From: an uncultured Verrucomicrobiae bacterium
GTDB taxonomy: Bacteria > Verrucomicrobiota > Verrucomicrobiia > Chthoniobacterales > JAFAMB01
DNA: 64,000 nt
Direction of reading: 5' to 3'
Assembly (NCBI GenBank): GCA_963775805.1
Contig: CAVZKG010000002.1
Coordinates: 454,693 to 518,692 of the forward strand
The position numbers and the translations under genes are program-made. A model generated the notes under the pieces. That model worked only from the letters and a program-made list of their open reading frames with translations, did no database searches and was not told where the DNA came from. Of the stretch, positions 3,108-9,763 are shown piece by piece. How positions within the stretch are numbered: position 1 is the stretch's first letter; every line of letters begins with the position of its first letter.

Positions 3108-4115
3108 TCAGCCGCTTGGTTGGACTCGCGGTTCCCGTAAGACCCAAAGCCGCTCAGAACGGTCCAGCACCGTCAACGGCGTGCCGGTGTGCTCGCGTTT
3201 GTAACCAAGCTTTGTCTTTAGTTTAGAGAAATGCGATTCCACAAAGGCCTGACTTCCCAGGATCACTCCATCGGTGAAGTAGCGGATCCGGCAACGCAAA
3301 ACTTCGGGCAGGGAGAGTTCGCCATTTTGTTCATCCACCACAGTTTGAGCGGTGCGCAGATCGAAGGCCCGGTGATTGGCTTTGGTATTCAAACTCCCGT
3401 GTACGAAGAGGTATTTGCGATACTCGCGGCTGACTTCTTTCCAGGAAGCTGTCTCTGGCTGACCCAGTATTGTTCTAATCCCCTGGCGTGCCAACTCACA
3501 ACCCTTGCCGAGCGCCTCGCCATAACCGCAATAGCGATAATCTTTAGGATCGGCACACAGGCCTGCCCGAACCGGGTTGAGGTCGATGTAAGCAGCAACG
3601 GCGGCCAATGCCTCACCCCCTTCAAGCAGAACACTCTTAAAACGCTCTGCCCAAAGCACCCCGTAGCGACCATGACGTCGGTTGTAGCCTTGGGCGAAGC
3701 GACCTTTAAGTTCCTTGACGAAAATCGAGATATCGTACATGCGCCTGCGGTAGGGCCCCAAGAGTCGTTGGATCGGACCGGCGCCATCCGGTTGCTGACG
3801 CAAGCGCTCTAGCTCCTGTTCGAGAGCTTGGCGACGCGCCGGGCCGTAGCCGGCCTCGATACGTTCAAGTAGCTCGAGCTCGGAAAGCGCTTTGGCCTCG
3901 GGCACTTCGCACAGAATGTGGAAGTGATTAGACATCAGGGCATAGGTCAAAACCCGTACACCGCTAAAGGCCTCCAGCCGTCGCATGAGTCGCACAAATC
4001 GTTCGGCCTCAGCGGAGCCGTGAGCGGAAGCATGGAAAATGAATAGACGGTCGACCACCCTGGAAACGCAGTGGTAGAAACTCTGACCCTCAGCCTTGAC
4101 GCGCGGAAATCTCAT
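3108..4115 (-). CDS. Y1 (HUH) tyrosine transposase, IS200/IS605 TnpA-like, REP-associated (RAYT) type
   Basis: The track ORF is 3108..4163. The likely start is the ATG at 4115 (MRFPRVKAEGQSFYHCVSRVVDR...). It has the HUH motif in LMSNHFHILCEV and the distal block RHGRYGVLWAERFKSVLL...YIDLNPVRAGL. There is no tnpB and no IS termini, and it is flanked by REP-like repeats. Confidence 0.7.
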   Translation of the reverse strand: MRFPRVKAEGQSFYHCVSRVVDRLFIFHASAHGSAEAERFVRLMRRLEAFSGVRVLTYALMSNHFHILCEVPEAKALSELELLERIEAGYGPARRQALEQELERLRQQPDGAGPIQRLLGPYRRRMYDISIFVKELKGRFAQGYNRRHGRYGVLWAERFKSVLLEGGEALAAVAAYIDLNPVRAGLCADPKDYRYCGYGEALGKGCELARQGIRTILGQPETASWKEVSREYRKYLFVHGSLNTKANHRAFDLRTAQTVVDEQNGELSLPEVLRCRIRYFTDGVILGSQAFVESHFSKLKTKLGYKREHTGTPLTVLDRSERLWVLREPRVQPSG

Positions 4116-4189
4116 CGGTGTGCGGCGCAACATACACAACATAATAAGAAAGTGTAGTGACATTTGCTCGGATACACCAATATTTGACC

Positions 4190-4225
4190 TGTCCCTCCTT
4201 CCGTCTTTGTCCCTCCTTCCGTCTT
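4190..4225 (+). repeat. perfect 18-bp tandem duplication tgtccctccttccgtctt x2
   Basis: 4190-4207 is identical to 4208-4225. The first copy is preceded by gacc, giving the core GACCTGTCCC at 4186-4195. This is inverted relative to 2691-2700 and 2810-2819 on the other side of the transposase gene. Confidence 0.9.
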
Positions 4226-4346
4226 GTCTTTACACATATCGCGGGCTGCAGTCACGTTCGTACGCCTCTGATGCGCCAAAGCAAAAAGCAGGGTCCTCTC
4301 GAAGCCGGGCGCAACGTTCCTGGTTCCGGGGGGTTAAATCGGCGCA

Positions 4347-4670
4347 ATGAAACTCCTATCTATCCTCCCTCTTGCCCTCCTGGCGGTAACGATCTCGATG
4401 TACTCTGCAAAGGCCGATCAGGTTTACCACGGGGCGCGCGGCACCGCGGTACGCGGGCCGAACGGCGCGGCCGTCCATACTCACCATGGCACAGCAGTGC
4501 GCACCGGAAACGGTACCTACACCCACGTCCACGGCAGTGGAACCGTCACCCACACCAACTACAATTGGAATAACTCCTACTGGCGCTCGAACAAGTACGG
4601 CTATTGGAACGGAAACCGCGGTTACTGGCGCGTAGTCAACGGTAATCACGTCTTCGTTGTCGTGAATTGA
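4347..4670 (+). CDS. small secreted His/Gly/Thr/Asn-rich protein
   Basis: It has a signal peptide MKLLSILPLALLAVTISMYSAKA. The mature part has reiterated G(T/A)AV(R/H)T and H-x-H motifs (HGARGTAVRGPNGAAVHTHHGTAVRTGNGTYTHVHGSGTVTHT), followed by an aromatic/Asn-rich tail. Confidence 0.6.
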   Translation: MKLLSILPLALLAVTISMYSAKADQVYHGARGTAVRGPNGAAVHTHHGTAVRTGNGTYTHVHGSGTVTHTNYNWNNSYWRSNKYGYWNGNRGYWRVVNGNHVFVVVN

Positions 4671-4864
4671 GTCCCATTTAGGCGCAAGTGATTGGCCCAA
4701 GTTGTTTCCGTACCCCAACAACTGGGCCGGCGTCTATGGATTCCCCGGGGAACCGGATAAACTGAACCGGCCTTGGCCGATGTCCGGCCGTTCGGTTTGG
4801 TCAGAATCTTTTCCAAAGCACTTTCCCAAATGTAATTGGCTTAAGTGCTTGGTTATAAGGCCTT

Positions 4865-4909
4865 TGTCCCCGCCGGGAATCGAACCCGGATTTAAGGTTT
4901 AGGAAACCT
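4865..4909 (-). repeat. 45-bp perfect copy of the 3' half of tRNA-Arg(CCT), a candidate distal att site
   Basis: tgtccccgccgggaatcgaacccggatttaaggtttaggaaacct at 4865-4909 is identical to 7999-8043 in the same orientation. It is not a complete tRNA, because the 5' half is missing. Confidence 0.9.
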
Positions 4910-4980
4910 ATAATATCTCCTGGGGGAGGTGGGTATTTTTCTTGAAATGTGTGCTTTAGAGACATGGCCCGATCCGAAAA

Positions 4981-5189
4981 GTGGGTGATCTACGCCCTGC
5001 TTCCGACCACGGGCTTGAGCCAGGCGACGTTGGGGTCGTCGTCCACGTACACCTCACAATGAGGCTTACGAAGTCGAGTTTGTAAAGCTGGCGGGACAGA
5101 CAGCCGCGATTGTTACTGCGTCAGCCGGCTAAATTCGGCCGATTGGCAAAGATGAGATTCCGCATACGCGGGAACTGGCGCACCGTTAG
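4981..5189 (+). pseudogene. DUF4926-like gene disrupted by frameshifts
   Basis: Three frames read in succession give GDLRPASDHGLEPGDVGVVVHV / HNEAYEVEFVKLAGQTAAIVTASAG / IRPIGKDEIPHTRELAHR. As I recall the family, the GDVG.VVHV...AYEVEF pattern is its hallmark. No single frame stays open. Confidence 0.35.
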
Positions 5190-5269
5190 CTAGCGCAAAT
5201 CCTGGCCGAACAGAGCATTGGAGATCGGTCAGCAGCCACGTATAGAAACAATCTGAGAGGACGAGCGAG

Positions 5270-5608
5270 ATGCCATCCGAGAAACCTGGAAAAATCACTT
5301 TCAAGGGTAAGATCGATCCACGATTGATCCCCACCGACGCCGCACCTGGTTATGAGATTGTCGATGCCAAGGTGACAGAGACGGGTGTCGACGTTTGGCT
5401 TTCAGATGGCAGAGTCATTATCACTCCGCTCTCGTGGTATCCAACTTTGGAAGCTGCAAGTCCAAAACAGCGTAAGGCGTTCGAGAATTGGGGAGTTGGA
5501 CTAGCGTGGGAAAACTTGGACTTCCACTTAAGTGTTGAAAGAATGCTTGCTGGGACGAGGAGCTGTTTCTCTAGATTTCAGGTGACCGCTCCAGATTATG
5601 GCCAGTAG
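5270..5608 (+). CDS. DUF2442 domain protein
   Basis: This is a 112-aa ORF. The segment VWLSDGRVIITPLSWYPTLEAASPKQRKAFENWGVGLAWENLDFHLSVERMLAG matches the DUF2442 pattern (PLSWYPRL...A.P..R..W....G..I.W..LDEDISVEGLL). Confidence 0.7.
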   Translation: MPSEKPGKITFKGKIDPRLIPTDAAPGYEIVDAKVTETGVDVWLSDGRVIITPLSWYPTLEAASPKQRKAFENWGVGLAWENLDFHLSVERMLAGTRSCFSRFQVTAPDYGQ

Positions 5609-5614
5609 GCGAGA

Positions 5615-5638
5615 TTGCAAAAACGGTGGTTTTTGCAA
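5615..5638 (+). terminator. 10-bp perfect hairpin after the DUF2442 gene; terminator function is uncertain
   Basis: ttgcaaaaac (5615-5624), loop ggtg, gtttttgcaa (5629-5638). The stem is AT-rich and no separate U-tract follows. Confidence 0.3.
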
Positions 5639-5743
5639 CTGCCAGAACGCAGTCATTCCACTACGCTCTGCGGCTCGTTGTAGAAAAAAGATGCTCTGGT
5701 GGACATCAAACGAGTAAGTTGTCGAAACTGTACGCACCGAAGA

Positions 5744-6127
5744 ATGAGAATTGGCGAACTCGCGAAATCCGTCGATGTGAACGTCGAAACAATTCGATAT
5801 TACCAGCGTATCGGACTACTGGGACTTCCGCAAAAACCCTACGGAGGGACCCGGTCCTATAGCGGCGACGATCTGAGGAGGCTGCGCTTCATCCGTCGCG
5901 CTCAGCGGATTGGATTTTCGCTGGAAGATATTCGAGCGCTTTTGGAGCTTTCGAGTTCCGATTGCAAACAGGTTGGAAAACTTGCTGCCGAAAAGCTAAC
6001 CCTGGTTCACACGAAGCTAATACAATTGCGCAGGATCGAATCGATCCTCACGAAGACCGTTGAACAATGCGCCAGCCGCAAAGGGCACCAACCTTGTCCG
6101 ATCATCGAGACGCTCAGTCAATCCTGA
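5744..6127 (+). CDS. merR: Hg(II)-responsive MerR family transcriptional regulator
   Basis: The start is the ATG at 5744 (the track ORF starts at 5699). It has an N-terminal HTH MRIGELAKSVDVNVETIRYYQRIGLL. The metal-binding Cys pattern SSDC...CASRKGHQPCP corresponds to the three conserved MerR cysteines. Confidence 0.85.
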   Translation: MRIGELAKSVDVNVETIRYYQRIGLLGLPQKPYGGTRSYSGDDLRRLRFIRRAQRIGFSLEDIRALLELSSSDCKQVGKLAAEKLTLVHTKLIQLRRIESILTKTVEQCASRKGHQPCPIIETLSQS

Positions 6128-6135
6128 AGTAGCTA

Positions 6136-6167
6136 TTGACACCGTACCCTAGTACGGCGCTTAAGGT
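6136..6167 (+). promoter_or_regulatory. MerR operator/promoter (merOP-like)
   Basis: The sequence reads TTGACA (6136-6141), CCGTAC-ccta-GTACGG dyad (6142-6157), cgct, TAAGGT (6162-6167), giving a 20-bp spacer between the hexamers. Compare Tn501 TTGACTCCGTACATGAGTACGGAAGTAAGGT, quoted from memory. It lies 14 nt upstream of the merT ATG. Confidence 0.8.
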
Positions 6168-6180
6168 GAGGCTCAGAGAT

Positions 6181-6549
6181 ATGTCTGAGCTGAATAAACC
6201 TAATGCTACCCAAAGCGCAAAAGGCTTCTTGGTGGCGGGGATTCTTGCGGCTGTTGGAGCGTCGATCTGCTGCGTCGGGCCCCTCGTGTTGCTGGCGCTT
6301 GGCGTTAGTGGTGCCTGGATCGGCTCACTGACAGCGCTCGAACCGTACCGTCCGCTTTTTATTGGACTGACGCTTCTCTTCCTCGGGTTCGCGTTTCACC
6401 GCCTCTATTTCGCACGTCGACCTTGCGCTCCAGGGTCGGCCTGCGCGAATCCGCGCACCCTAAAACACCAGCGCTTGGCATTCTGGATCGTTACGATCCT
6501 GGTGCTCGGCCTAATTTCCGTACCGTGGCTGGCGCCACTATTTTATTGA
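6181..6549 (+). CDS. merT: mercuric ion transporter MerT
   Basis: The start is the ATG at 6181 (MSELNKPN...). It has three TM helices, a vicinal Cys pair in TM1 (GASICCVGPLVLLALG) and a second cytoplasmic Cys pair (RPCAPGSAC). Confidence 0.85.
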   Translation: MSELNKPNATQSAKGFLVAGILAAVGASICCVGPLVLLALGVSGAWIGSLTALEPYRPLFIGLTLLFLGFAFHRLYFARRPCAPGSACANPRTLKHQRLAFWIVTILVLGLISVPWLAPLFY

Positions 6550-6551
6550 TT

Positions 6552-6842
6552 ATGAAATCGCATAAGAACCGTCTTGCCCTACTCACTGCCCTCGTGGCGT
6601 TTCCCTTTAGTCTGTTTGCTGGGACCTTACAAACCGTCACTCTCGAGGTGAGGAATATGACCTGCGCGGTCTGTCCGATCACGGTCAAGAAGGCATTGGG
6701 AAAAGTGCCTGGGGTAACGGACGCGAAAGTGGATTTTGATAAGAAAACTGCCAGCGTTTCGTTTGACCCTGATAAAGCGGATGTCGCTCAACTAACCAAA
6801 GCGACTGCAGACGCGGGCTATCTTTCCTCTGTCCGTAATTGA
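6552..6842 (+). CDS. merP: periplasmic mercuric ion binding protein MerP
   Basis: The ATG at 6552 lies 2 nt after the merT stop. It has a signal peptide, then an HMA fold with the NMTCAVCP (GMTCxxC-type) motif. Confidence 0.85.
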   Translation: MKSHKNRLALLTALVAFPFSLFAGTLQTVTLEVRNMTCAVCPITVKKALGKVPGVTDAKVDFDKKTASVSFDPDKADVAQLTKATADAGYLSSVRN

Positions 6843-6850
6843 ATGCGGCT

Positions 6851-7069
6851 ATGAACGAGGCTCTCCAAGAATCCGTGCTGGTCTGCCCCGTTTGCGGCTT
6901 CGCTAAGCGAGAAACGATGCCAACCAATGCCTGCCAATTCTTCTACGAGTGCTCTAACTGCAAAACGCTGCTACGCCCTAAGCCCGGCGATTGCTGCGTC
7001 TTTTGTTCTTACGGTTCGGTGAAATGTCCGCCAATGCAGGGCGAAAATCACATCTGCGCTGCTGGCTAG
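6851..7069 (+). CDS. GDCCVxC domain-containing protein (Cys form)
   Basis: It has an N-terminal CPVC, a central CSNC and the C-terminal motif PGDCCVFCSYGSVKCPP. This small Cys-rich family is, as I recall, frequently linked to mer operons. The start is the ATG at 6851 (the track starts at TTG 6839). Confidence 0.65.
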   Translation: MNEALQESVLVCPVCGFAKRETMPTNACQFFYECSNCKTLLRPKPGDCCVFCSYGSVKCPPMQGENHICAAG

Positions 7070-7100
7070 CTGAACCAATCCACTCCCACAGAGCCCAGTT

Positions 7101-7721
7101 ATGAAGAAATCTATTAGCCAGGAAACTGTTACTTTTTACGATGTGCCGTTAGTATGCGGAGCTGCACCATCGATTGGTTGCGGCAGTCGAGCTAAGCCAC
7201 TCTTGTTAGATCTCGAGCGGCAAAGTGCAATCAAAGAGGTTTGGTTGAACCGGACGGGAACGATAGTAGCGATCGTATGGCATGACGAACCACACATGGA
7301 AGAAGCCGGCAAACCGATCTTCAAAAGGCATGAAGTAGAATACAATGAACTGCGCGGCGATAAGCCCGACTCTCTTCGAATTGACGAGGGCTGGTTTCGT
7401 GGCGCCGAAGTGGATCATCTAAGCTTGGAAGAAGCGCGAGAAATTGCGGAAACCTTGGTGGCCCTGGTAGGCAAGGAGCGGTTGACCTCTATTGAGGAAG
7501 CCGCGCAGATCAAATCCGACATTGAACACTACTTTCGGAAAGAGCTGATCAAGATTCGAACTAAACAAGAATTGCTGCACGACACGCAAGACAAGTTCCG
7601 AAAGGCGGTTCTTAACATCTTTCAGAAGCATGTCGGGACGGAACGAGCGAGCGAGGTACAGGCGCGCATCCAAAACCCATTCGCCATAGCAGAAAAGGCA
7701 GAGACCTCTAGCTGTTGTTGA
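7101..7721 (+). CDS. unassigned cytoplasmic Cys-containing protein, last gene of the mer-like operon
   Basis: This is a 206-aa ORF. The N-terminal ~65 aa looks like a ferredoxin-like/HMA-type module with an extended Cys loop (VTFYDVPLVCGAAPSIGCGSRAKP...VWLNRTGTIVAIVWHD). It continues with a helical Glu/Lys-rich region and ends in a vicinal pair ...AETSSCC. No TM segment or signal peptide is present. Confidence 0.6.
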   Translation: MKKSISQETVTFYDVPLVCGAAPSIGCGSRAKPLLLDLERQSAIKEVWLNRTGTIVAIVWHDEPHMEEAGKPIFKRHEVEYNELRGDKPDSLRIDEGWFRGAEVDHLSLEEAREIAETLVALVGKERLTSIEEAAQIKSDIEHYFRKELIKIRTKQELLHDTQDKFRKAVLNIFQKHVGTERASEVQARIQNPFAIAEKAETSSCC

Positions 7722-7998
7722 GGGGAAAGCCGACCCAGGTCGTTTGTTCGAATTTCCTGTGCGACTTTCACATGGATCTCCGCCCGGCAAGCGGGTTACG
7801 GCTGATCCCCGAGAGCGAGTCGCTCGAAACTAGAAAGTGAGGTTTCGCCGATTAAACGACCGATGGGCAGATAATCCGACGAGCCGTTTGCGTGTGTGTT
7901 TTGTGTGTGTCTTTCAGTGATCGAGCTTGATGGATTGTGAGGCCCGGTGAGATTCGGTGATCTCTCGTAAGCTCCTCGTAATTAGCATAATCTAATCA

Positions 7999-8070
7999 TG
8001 TCCCCGCCGGGAATCGAACCCGGATTTAAGGTTTAGGAAACCTCCGTTCTATCCGTTGAACTACGGAGAC
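7999..8070 (-). tRNA. tRNA-Arg (anticodon CCT)
   Basis: The reverse complement is GTCTCCGTAGTTCAACGGATAGAACGGAGGTTTCCTAAACCTTAAATCCGGGTTCGATTCCCGGCGGGGACA. It folds into a cloverleaf with a 7-bp acceptor, D arm GTTC/GAAC, anticodon stem GAGGT/ACCTT, loop TTCCTAA and T arm CCGGG-TTCGATT-CCCGG. No CCA is encoded. Confidence 0.9.
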
Positions 8071-8363
8071 GTATGATTATGAACGACTTATGATTGATAC
8101 CATCTCCATAGGAGCGAAGTTCTACTAAGGCCCTTTGTGTCCCAAGCCGTGCACAGGCGTTCAAATAGTCTAAAAACTCTCCATCTGCAATTCTGATCGC
8201 GACCCGATTTAAAGTACCGGGATTTCGGAAACAGACATCGCTCTGCAAATTTTTTCCGCGGTTTGGGTGGCCTTTTTGCAGATGATTCGTGCAAGCCGAG
8301 CGCCGTCCAACCTCCGGATCAATCTGACTTGGCGGTCATGAGTGCAGCGGTGACACCGCTTCG

Positions 8364-8573
8364 TCATGTATCCAGAGTGAAGCCGACCTTCACGGTCACC
8401 TGCCAGTTCGCAACTTTGTTATTCTCGAGGTGGCCGCGCACCTCGGCAACCTCGAACCACTTCATATTCCGGATCGTCTTGCCGGCTCGCGTGATTGCAT
8501 TGTTCACTGCGTCTTCGATACCGTTTGGCGAGGAACCGACCAGCTCAATCTTTTTGTAAATGTGGTCACTCAT
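8364..8573 (-). CDS. dodecin family flavin-binding protein
   Basis: The start is the ATG at 8573. The 69-aa sequence [69 protein letters not shown] has the typical dodecin length and pattern. The track ORF (to 8717) is an upstream extension. Confidence 0.8.
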
Positions 8574-8749
8574 AGCCGGAACAAACCATTGCACGTGGCG
8601 TCGGGCGAGCAGATTTCTAGACGTAAGGACAAAGCATTTTTGCAGTTGAAAAAATGAGTTTCGTCTCCAAGTGCGTAGCACTGGTCTTTCTTTTTGTCGG
8701 TAGAACCTGATTTGCAAGAGCCCTCACGGAAATGCTCTGCTCGTTTTGG

Positions 8750-9763
8750 TTACGGCATCTCCTGCTGGCCTGACGCCATCGAGCGTACCATCGCTTCGAG
8801 CACGCGCATCGCCGTTACACCATCGATGATCGTGGGCGCATCGTTCGGCTCGCCTCTTACCGCGGCAAGGAATGCCGATAACAACGCTTGGTAGCCCTTA
8901 TGGTCTTCGTTTGCCGCGGCAGTCAGATTCGGCTCCCACATCAGGGTGTCCTCCTGCGGATCGAGCGTCGCGTCGGCAGCGTTCGCTTTGAACGCCGGGT
9001 TGCGGTAGTAGCGAACCTCATGAACGTTTCGGATTTCCAAGCGCTGATGGTCGCCCATCACCTGCCACCACTCCATTGGCGTGCCGCGCGATTGATTCGT
9101 GCCCATCACGACAGTCGCAAGCGCGCCGGATTTGAATTCGAAGCTAACGTGCAGAACTAGTTTTCCTGGTTCGATCTCATGAGATCGTGCGTGAACGCTT
9201 TTCACCGGCTCACCCATCAGCCAAGGGACAAGGTCCATTGCGTGCACGCAGTGATGCAACAGGAAGCCGGTATAGTCAGGGTTGCCAACGAAATAGCTCG
9301 GCGCGGTCATGTACTCGCCAAGCAGACTGGCCGGAGTTCCGAAGGAGGGAGTGCGCAATATGTTCCCTGCGATTCGATTCGCGGTTGAATAGCGCTTCAT
9401 AAAGCCGACAACGCAAGGCTTCCCAGCGCGCGCCGCTTCATCAGCGAGACGTTGGGCGGCCTTCGCGGTCGGAGCAGGCGGCTTTTCCATGAAAACCGGC
9501 AAGCCGAGTGACAGCGCCTGCAGACCCAACTCGACATGAACGGCAGGCCCCACGGCCATACCGATTGCGTCCAGCCCTTGATGAGCAAGCATTTGACCCG
9601 CATCGGCATAGCGCGCGGCGACACCGTACCGGTTGCCGATCTGTTCCAGGCTCTTTCCGTCGACATCGCAAAGAGCTGCGATCTTCACAGGTAGCCGCAC
9701 GAGTTGAGGCAACAGCATTTCGCTCGCATGCGTGCCACACCCGATCCATCCGATATTGATCAT
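8750..9763 (-). CDS. Gfo/Idh/MocA family NAD(P)-dependent oxidoreductase
   Basis: It has the N-terminal Rossmann motif MINIGWIGCGTHA and the EKP motif (VFMEKPPA), in 337 aa. The start overlaps the upstream stop in an ATGA. Confidence 0.85.
   Translation of the reverse strand: MINIGWIGCGTHASEMLLPQLVRLPVKIAALCDVDGKSLEQIGNRYGVAARYADAGQMLAHQGLDAIGMAVGPAVHVELGLQALSLGLPVFMEKPPAPTAKAAQRLADEAARAGKPCVVGFMKRYSTANRIAGNILRTPSFGTPASLLGEYMTAPSYFVGNPDYTGFLLHHCVHAMDLVPWLMGEPVKSVHARSHEIEPGKLVLHVSFEFKSGALATVVMGTNQSRGTPMEWWQVMGDHQRLEIRNVHEVRYYRNPAFKANAADATLDPQEDTLMWEPNLTAAANEDHKGYQALLSAFLAAVRGEPNDAPTIIDGVTAMRVLEAMVRSMASGQQEMP

Follow-up and report, generated by a model that had tools for sequence, protein, structure and literature searches.

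A merA-less merR-merT-merP cassette with two conserved mer-linked proteins beside a tRNA-Arg gene in a verrucomicrobial genome

Mercury-resistance (mer) cassettes that hold merR, merT and merP and no mercuric reductase gene (merA) are an already established category. The transposon Tn5563 has been called a “defective mer locus” (PMC4785139) and said to contain “only part of this operon” (PMC4133298). Published descriptions of it list merR, merT and merP only (PMC4785139; PMC4133298), omitting the gene for a GDCCVxC-domain protein that stands fourth, between merP and tnpA, in both plasmid loci that we examined (at 6001–6213 of locus L107, pKPC2_045096, and at 6001–6213 of locus L108; a divergent merR followed by merT-merP-GDCCVxC-tnpA, with no merA in the cassette). 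Here we describe a related cassette at positions 5744–7721 of a 64,000-nucleotide stretch of DNA from an uncultured Verrucomicrobiae bacterium (contig CAVZKG010000002.1; the whole stretch is referred to hereafter as the window), in which merR, merT, merP, a GDCCVxC gene and a gene for a 206-residue protein (hereafter P206) follow one another on the same strand. With somewhat better than even confidence, we regard it as the regulator-plus-uptake part of a verrucomicrobial mer operon, present as a merA-less derivative or recombinant on a decayed tRNA-Arg island.

The cassette genes were read from the listing of open reading frames (ORFs) and directly from the DNA of 5200–8400, and were then scanned against NCBIfam and Pfam. 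All five ORFs are intact and co-directional, with an operator between the first and the second:

5744..6127, plus strand: merR, Hg(II)-responsive regulator, 127 aa (TIGR02051, 145.4 bits against a cutoff of 150.85; PF13411, PF09278)
6136..6167, plus strand: mer operator/promoter (-35 TTGACA, 6136–6141; dyad CCGTACCCTAGTACGG, 6142–6157; -10 TAAGGT, 6162–6167)
6181..6549, plus strand: merT, inner-membrane Hg(II) transporter, 122 aa (PF02411, 132 bits; NF010314, 136.4 bits against a cutoff of 150)
6552..6842, plus strand: merP, periplasmic Hg(II)-binding protein, 96 aa (TIGR02052, 97.5 bits, above the cutoff of 92.55)
6851..7069, plus strand: gene for the GDCCVxC-domain protein, 72 aa (NF041374, 105.9 bits against a cutoff of 40)
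7101..7721, plus strand: gene for P206, 206 aa, a mer-linked family without annotation (no Pfam or NCBIfam match)

MerR carries Cys75, Cys110 and Cys119, at spacings of 35 and 9 residues that we take to equal those of C82, C117 and C126 in Tn501 MerR. MerT has a CC in its first transmembrane helix and a second, cytoplasmic pair in RRPCAPGSAC, and MerP has a signal peptide and the motif MTCAVC. An initial annotation of this DNA had named a three-Cys merR, a mer operator, merT (CC in the first transmembrane helix) and merP (MTCAVC), and both the profile matches and direct reading place all four where it had put them. It had also found no merA or organomercurial lyase gene (merB) after the cassette, a statement that can be extended to the whole 64 kb: none of the 10 ORFs of at least 400 aa encodes a pyridine-nucleotide (flavin) disulfide oxidoreductase, and a tblastn search of the window with a Rhodanobacter MerA, a verrucomicrobial MerA fragment and one MerB matched only the HMA domain of MerP.

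For comparison we gathered 60 loci from species-representative genomes, 31 metagenomic loci, several plasmid loci and the loci with near-identical MerP (cited below by L-number). These were annotated by phmmer against a reference set that included genuine MerA, and candidate MerA proteins were inspected for a CxxxxC active site and a CC at the C-terminus; loci whose P206 is 60–70% identical to that of the window are referred to as the near clade. Homology of the cassette to its relatives is limited to 5685–7718. Blastn searches with the flanks (4300–5700 and 7719–8800) found no homology in any fetched locus, so that the end-points of a deletion are not indicated. The closest relatives are the L064–69 group, with 87% DNA identity over 5701–7679, followed by L070 (82%) and L071 (81%). 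In L064–69 the order merR, merT, merP, GDCCVxC, P206 is the same and leads, 105 nt on, into a 475-aa core MerA with the active-site motif TCVNRGCLPSK, a C-terminal LSCCAE and no N-terminal HMA domain; in L071, P206 is followed by merC and then merA, and in L070 by merC and then the end of the contig. Elsewhere in the near clade merA also follows in L001, L072, L076, L081, L114 and L115, in some cases after merC or a small ORF.

The initial annotation had tied a deletion origin to merA adjoining most homologous loci. A reductase gene does accompany the nearest lineages (with the proviso that L070 reaches merC, where its contig ends), but “most” does not describe the near clade, about half of which is merA-less. 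No merA is found in the 1–9 kb downstream of the cassette in L002, L003, L073, L078–80, L082/83, L085, L088, L089, L100 and L113, and the genes that follow P206 in merA-less loci vary each time (a short-chain dehydrogenase/reductase, an enoyl-CoA hydratase, a methyltransferase, a hydrolase). Decay of merA does occur in the clade, since soil metagenome contigs L092–96 hold 143-aa merA fragments directly after P206 (e.g. L092 3747–4178). In a neighbour-joining tree of P206, cassettes with and without merA are intermingled: the sister of the window is L064 and that of L002 is L081, both sisters being merA-plus, and a single metagenome-assembled genome carries both L001 (merA-plus) and L002 (merA-minus). 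We infer that the change in the lineage of the window would have been a loss of merA.

Several side observations concern these relatives. The L002 cassette, which lies 1.3 kb from a tRNA-Ser gene (L002 101–188), has an internally deleted merR (L002 1500–1594 against window 5685–6056) and an intact operator and structural genes. Between the window and L064 the four upstream proteins are ~90% identical and P206 only 69%, its first ~70 residues being near-identical and the remainder diverged; the DNA homology ends at 7679 against L064, but at 7718 against both L001 and L002 (window 7680–7721). This suggests a recombination mosaic inside the P206 gene. A further P206-like paralogue, of 257 aa, is present in L064. 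An ArsR-type (HTH_5) regulator and a 410-aa protein matching MtrA and the pterin-binding DUF4346 recur some 5 kb downstream of near-clade cassettes (L064 12519–16205; L113 14701–16312), a neighbourhood that may be another metal- or methyl-transfer module.

The operator is a perfect dyad, CCGTAC-CCTA-GTACGG, followed by CGCT before the -10, such that the -35 and -10 elements are separated by 20 nt. It is the sole perfect dyad match in the window (with up to two mismatches, ~1 match per window is expected by chance). The merR stop codon occupies 6125–6127, leaving 8 nt before the -35, which begins at the ninth; the operator thus does stand just 3′ of the merR stop, as first annotated, and the “9 nt” given for that distance is a counting difference. 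The co-directional merR with the operator right after its stop is likewise real, but it is not unique to this locus. The same wiring, with the -35 starting 3–8 nt past the stop, recurs in L001, L064–69, L070, L071, L076, L089/90 and L113; merR is co-directional and placed further upstream in L072, L075 and L091–95, and it is divergent in other clade members (L003, L004, L082, L086).

In Firmicutes-type mer systems the operator lies upstream of merR. For an operator immediately downstream of merR we found no published description. A co-directional merR as such is not new: under the term “convergent” it has been described as the prevailing arrangement in Firmicutes and as a rarity among Proteobacteria (PMC3466566). 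Cluster 1 of plasmid pMR68 was considered as a precedent for the co-directional arrangement and rejected, merR being divergent there.

Every operator of the clade has a TAnnnT -10 at 20-nt spacing, and a 20-nt spacer is also present on the Methylomagnum ishizawai chromosome and in Tn5563 (L104 4300–4335; L107 5000–5035). As a side observation, this spacer is common to all of the GDCCVxC-linked cassette operators that were read, namely those of the verrucomicrobial clade, Tn5563 and Methylomagnum. The Tn501 mer promoter has a 19-nt spacer, and in a Tn21-like Rhodanobacter operon with three operator-like sites (L063 5935–5970) both sites read have 19 nt as well. A sigma-70 promoter scan of 4800–8200 gave no match, its consensus being limited to 16–18-nt spacers and hence blind to this promoter class; the promoter of merR was not located, the ~60 nt upstream of the merR start codon being only partly conserved. 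We envisage that MerR would sit on the dyad within the 20-nt-spacer promoter and that binding of Hg(II) would lead to transcription of merT, merP, the GDCCVxC gene and the P206 gene. Because there is no room for a terminator before this promoter, transcripts initiated upstream of merR would be expected to read through the MerR-bound promoter and to provide basal expression of the downstream genes.

The cassette is enclosed in an insert whose boundaries are marked by a repeated tRNA segment:

4865..4909, no strand assigned: left copy of a 45-nt direct repeat without mismatches (100% identity), equal in sequence to the 3′ part of tRNA-Arg; distal insert boundary
5194..5608, plus strand: truncated DUF4160 remnant (5194–5307) and DUF2442 ORF (5270–5608) (PF10387, 56 bits; tblastn and blastn against L101)
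7999..8070, minus strand: tRNA-Arg(CCT) (ARAGORN; Rfam, 66.5 bits); its 3′ 45 nt (7999–8043) are the right copy of the repeat

No match to the 45-nt repeat arose in 100 shuffles, and the left copy additionally gives a weak tRNA-like Rfam signal (4865–4926, 24 bits). The repeats bound an insert of 3.1 kb and give it the classic signature of integration at the 3′ end of a tRNA gene. Its G+C content is ~52%, against ~57% to its right, and just 277 non-coding bp separate the P206 stop from the tRNA gene. Exact-sequence searches with P206 and with a dodecin-like neighbouring protein, aimed among other things at an empty tRNA-Arg site, returned no record. Within 4910–7998 there is no integrase, transposase or resolvase ORF, and no terminal inverted repeats flank the cassette. 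Upstream of merR, window 5208–5560 is 90% DNA-identical to the paired DUF4160 and DUF2442 genes of an unrelated metagenome contig, the DUF4160 partner in the insert being cut down to its last 37 codons. With its integrase missing and this gene pair truncated, the insert looks like a mosaic with lost parts, and hence a decayed island.

Just past the DUF2442 stop, 47 nt before the start of cassette homology, lies a perfect 10-bp inverted repeat (TTGCAAAAAC-GGTG-GTTTTTGCAA, 5615–5638) which, as it is not accompanied by a T-tract, may serve as a binding site for a protein or be a scar of recombination. The DNA left of the island holds a 114-nt tandem pair (97% identical, 2680–2912), an exact 18-nt tandem pair (4190–4225) and a gene on the minus strand (3108–4163) whose 351-aa product has matches to IS200-like Y1 and REP-associated tyrosine transposases; the neighbourhood of the tRNA-Arg gene looks like a variable region.

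The two genes downstream of merP had been noted as encoding Cys-rich cytoplasmic proteins. Both are real, conserved and tightly mer-linked, but “Cys-rich” is not apt for P206, which has only four cysteines (the pair C19/C27 and a C-terminal CC). The GDCCVxC family (NF041374, named by NCBI) comprises at least 6,820 clusters and has nine family-invariant cysteines (two CxxC knuckles, C28, CCxxC and C59), all of which are kept in the window copy; a C-terminal CC is usual. A sequence search of the PDB found no relative of this protein, and a full-text search of the literature library for “GDCCVxC” found no paper. GDCCVxC genes occur on 352 plasmids in PLSDB, and one that is 71% identical to the window gene is found on plasmids of Pseudomonas, Aeromonas and Enterobacterales, including IncP-6 KPC plasmids. 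On the chromosome of Methylomagnum ishizawai a divergent merR faces merT-merP-GDCCVxC, with no merA within 5 kb. GDCCVxC genes have metal-related neighbours elsewhere too: MerTP together with CadD, a CDF transporter, DUF411 plus a chromate transporter, and DUF1326/DUF2182.

What is new in the cassette is P206, a family without a database model. A single-sequence search returned 278 homologues at E ≤ 1e-3 and a profile search at least 1,082 clusters; every homologue is annotated as “hypothetical”, without a Pfam domain. When 17 diverse members were scanned against Pfam and NCBIfam, only sub-threshold noise came up, with no match to the HMA family PF00403, and a sequence search of the PDB gave nothing significant. 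SH3_18, which appeared in 7 of the 17 members with a best E-value of 0.007, was considered as an assignment and rejected as chance. Across 63 loci the gene almost always adjoins MerT or MerTP under a MerR or ArsR regulator, and it is found fused to the C-terminus of MerTP (L017, L018, L026, L027, L029, L036, L037) or to GDCCVxC (L009, L010, L046). Homologues also go unrecognised inside experimentally studied or classical proteobacterial mer regions. One is the first gene after the divergent merR in the Tn3-type merTPCAD operon of a Rhodanobacter plasmid (L063 5995–6588), an operon which, as a side observation, also holds (2Fe-2S)-binding, DUF2282 and DUF692 genes. Another follows merT2-merP2 on Pseudomonas K-62 pMR68 (L062 6923–7624), where the publication reported “merT2-merP2” only, as an “incomplete mer operon” (PMC3737084).

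Invariant across the broad P206 family are C19 and C27 (a C-X7-C motif within PLVCxAAPxIGCG), W48, G53, W98 and the motif D105-x-L-S-x-x-E-A, and near-clade and most Bacteroidota members retain the C-terminal CC, which the K-62-like subgroup lacks. The window protein has no signal peptide, and no upstream extension is possible. An AlphaFold2 (AF2) model built from 44 diverse sequences reached a predicted local distance difference test score (pLDDT) of 81.7 and a predicted template-modelling score (pTM) of 0.76, where 24 close homologues had given a pLDDT of 57.7. The model predicts a domain of beta-alpha-beta-beta-alpha-beta topology, in which the first loop holds C19 and C27 lies where helix 1 starts; a helical bundle (101–190) and a disordered tail ending in CC follow. 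The top Foldseek matches in the PDB are almost all HMA domains (Ccc2a, MerP 1osd, PacS, CopZ, ATP7A/B), with target-normalised TM-scores of 0.67–0.79 and probabilities of 0.97–1.0, yet with E-values of at least 0.04, none reaching 0.001; aligning P206 with a MerP/NmerA profile by hhalign gave a non-significant probability of 5%. The HMA-like fold of the model is hence a structural resemblance rather than demonstrated homology.

In the reading that we prefer, a regulator-plus-uptake part of a mer operon, MerP would capture periplasmic Hg(II) and MerT would move it across the membrane through its Cys pairs. The cytoplasmic GDCCVxC protein, with its nine invariant cysteines, and P206, with its C-X7-C motif and C-terminal CC, would then receive Hg(II) as thiolate ligands and, in the relatives, would hand it on to the core MerA. 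Of the two roles that the initial annotation had suggested for the downstream proteins, a non-reductive sink or a hand-off, the latter is the one we favour, because the merA-containing relatives carry both proteins; a sink is also conceivable. The cassette alone cannot volatilise mercury; it would feed a merA encoded elsewhere (as in the genome that carries both L001 and L002) or act as an inducible thiol buffer.

A number of observations weigh against this reading. About 11 distinct near-clade loci are merA-less, including L113 on a 283-kb contig, and each is in a different genomic context; merA-less versions being this common, a one-off accident is disfavoured. Of 38 broad-family loci that carry merA or else have long flanks free of it, 24 are merA-less, with no merA within 5–10 kb on either side, and the ancestral state could have been merA-less, with merA added later. 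Tn5563 and the M. ishizawai chromosome have merR-merT-merP-GDCCVxC without merA. Beyond the near clade, most P206 proteins bear a signal peptide or lipobox or come after the HMA domain of MerTP, features from which they are probably periplasmic, and the primary site of action of the family may accordingly lie in the periplasm rather than in the cytoplasm.

The strongest alternative, which we rate as appreciably less likely, is that the cassette is an autonomous, complete and MerA-independent module in which imported Hg(II) is sequestered stoichiometrically by the GDCCVxC protein and P206, or passed to an acceptor other than MerA, such as an exporter or a low-molecular-weight thiol system. The combination of a regulator with MerT or MerTP, P206 and GDCCVxC, without merA within 5–10 kb, is present in at least 17 genomes of Bacteroidota and Verrucomicrobiota. 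GDCCVxC stands beside P206 in 17 of the 24 merA-less loci whose flanks reach 5 kb or more on either side and in 2 of the 14 loci that have MerA, an anticorrelation (Fisher p = 0.002, ignoring phylogeny) that is suggestive only, the near clade having both proteins together with MerA. The existence of P206-GDCCVxC and MerTP-P206 fusions, the adjacency of GDCCVxC genes to CadD or CDF exporters and the persistence of Tn5563 (merR-merT-merP-GDCCVxC) on hundreds of plasmids all fit such a module. MerA is moreover absent from about half of MerB-encoding genomes, and alternative routes of Hg(II) detoxification have been proposed (PMC8261052). What counts against autonomy is that the nearest relatives carry merA together with both proteins, and that a stoichiometric sink would be a weak defence. 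In Escherichia coli, uptake of Hg(II) without MerA leads to hypersensitivity. Furthermore, merA-less cassettes often co-reside with complete mer operons: beside L001/L002, the P. mandelii plasmid L108 has merA, merD and merE next to its Tn5563-type cassette, and pMR68 has a complete mer operon beside merT2-merP2 (PMC3737084).

Less probable still, and in our view unlikely, is that a deletion removed merA and the integrase and left a non-functional relic, MerR-repressed, decaying and without a present role. The island does lack an integrase and holds a truncated two-gene fragment, members of the clade do decay (the merA remnants of L092–96 and the internal deletion in the L002 merR), and Tn5563-type loci have been treated as defective (PMC4785139). 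Against this, the five ORFs are intact with all of their conserved cysteines, the operator is perfect, and the 45-nt repeats are still identical, suggesting a recent event. Comparison with L064 shows purifying selection on each of the five genes, with ratios of non-synonymous to synonymous substitution rates (dN/dS) of 0.13–0.27 (merR 0.13); these ratios mostly record history before any loss of merA and hence are weak evidence against a relic. It is very improbable that the cassette serves some other thiophilic metal, such as Cd, Zn, Au or Ag, and owes its mer likeness to ancestry alone: MerR (145.4 against 150.85) and MerT (136.4 against 150) do fall just under their NCBIfam equivalog cutoffs, and GDCCVxC genes also occur beside cadmium/CDF transporters, DUF411 and chromate transporters, but MerR spaces its three Cys as Hg(II) sensors typically do, the half-sites of the operator equal those of the classical mer dyad, MerP passes its equivalog cutoff, and the relatives have a bona fide MerA as well as MerC.

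Mer cassettes without a reductase are commonly written off as broken, but they are abundant, with Tn5563-type cassettes on carbapenemase plasmids and related cassettes in many soil Verrucomicrobiota and Bacteroidota, and they nearly always carry one or two conserved, unstudied cysteine proteins. It is a tentative proposition that P206 and the GDCCVxC protein represent a widespread, unrecognised form of MerA-independent Hg(II) handling, by thiolate sequestration or by relay to an acceptor other than MerA. If it holds, the window cassette, the ArsR-MerTP-P206-GDCCVxC modules of Bacteroidota and the Tn5563 copies on clinical plasmids would be working systems and not “defective mer loci”. Were the two proteins to buffer or relay Hg(II), two parts would be added to the mer paradigm, and the tolerance of Hg(II) uptake, or of MerB activity, without MerA could be explained (a question raised in PMC8261052); were they to do neither, the locus would be a truncated operon on a decayed island.

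Set against the classical mer systems of Tn21 and Tn501, the window cassette shares the three-Cys MerR, the CCGTAC-N4-GTACGG dyad between -35 and -10, the CC in the first transmembrane helix of MerT and the CxxC of MerP; it differs in having no merA, merD or merE, a co-directional merR, a spacer of 20 rather than 19 nt, and two extra genes. Engineered bioaccumulators that combine merT and merP with metallothionein or polyphosphate couple Hg(II) uptake to a cytoplasmic sink and not to reduction, and are in that respect a likeness; they are artificial, whereas the sink role of the GDCCVxC protein and P206 is only putative. With NmerA and the C-terminal Cys pair of MerA, P206 would have in common both an HMA-like fold and, at a flexible C-terminus, two vicinal Cys, in a clade whose own MerA is without NmerA; it differs by its C-X7-C motif in place of GMTCxxC, by the extra helical bundle and in that most P206 members appear to be exported.

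Tn5563 and Tn5563a (Tn3 family; Pseudomonas pRA2 and IncP-6 KPC plasmids) share with the window cassette merR, merT, merP, a GDCCVxC gene, the lack of merA and the 20-nt-spacer type of operator (TTGATT-N20-TAGAAT), their MerT being ~68% and their GDCCVxC protein ~71% identical to the window proteins. They differ in their divergent merR, in the absence of a P206 gene and in their backbone of Tn3-family transposase, resolvase and toxin-antitoxin genes, where the window cassette lies on a tRNA island. The uncharacterised soil and verrucomicrobial operons L064–69, L071, L072, L076, L114 and L115 have a gene order identical to that of the window cassette, as is the merR-operator wiring of L064–69, L071 and L076, but they continue into a core merA.

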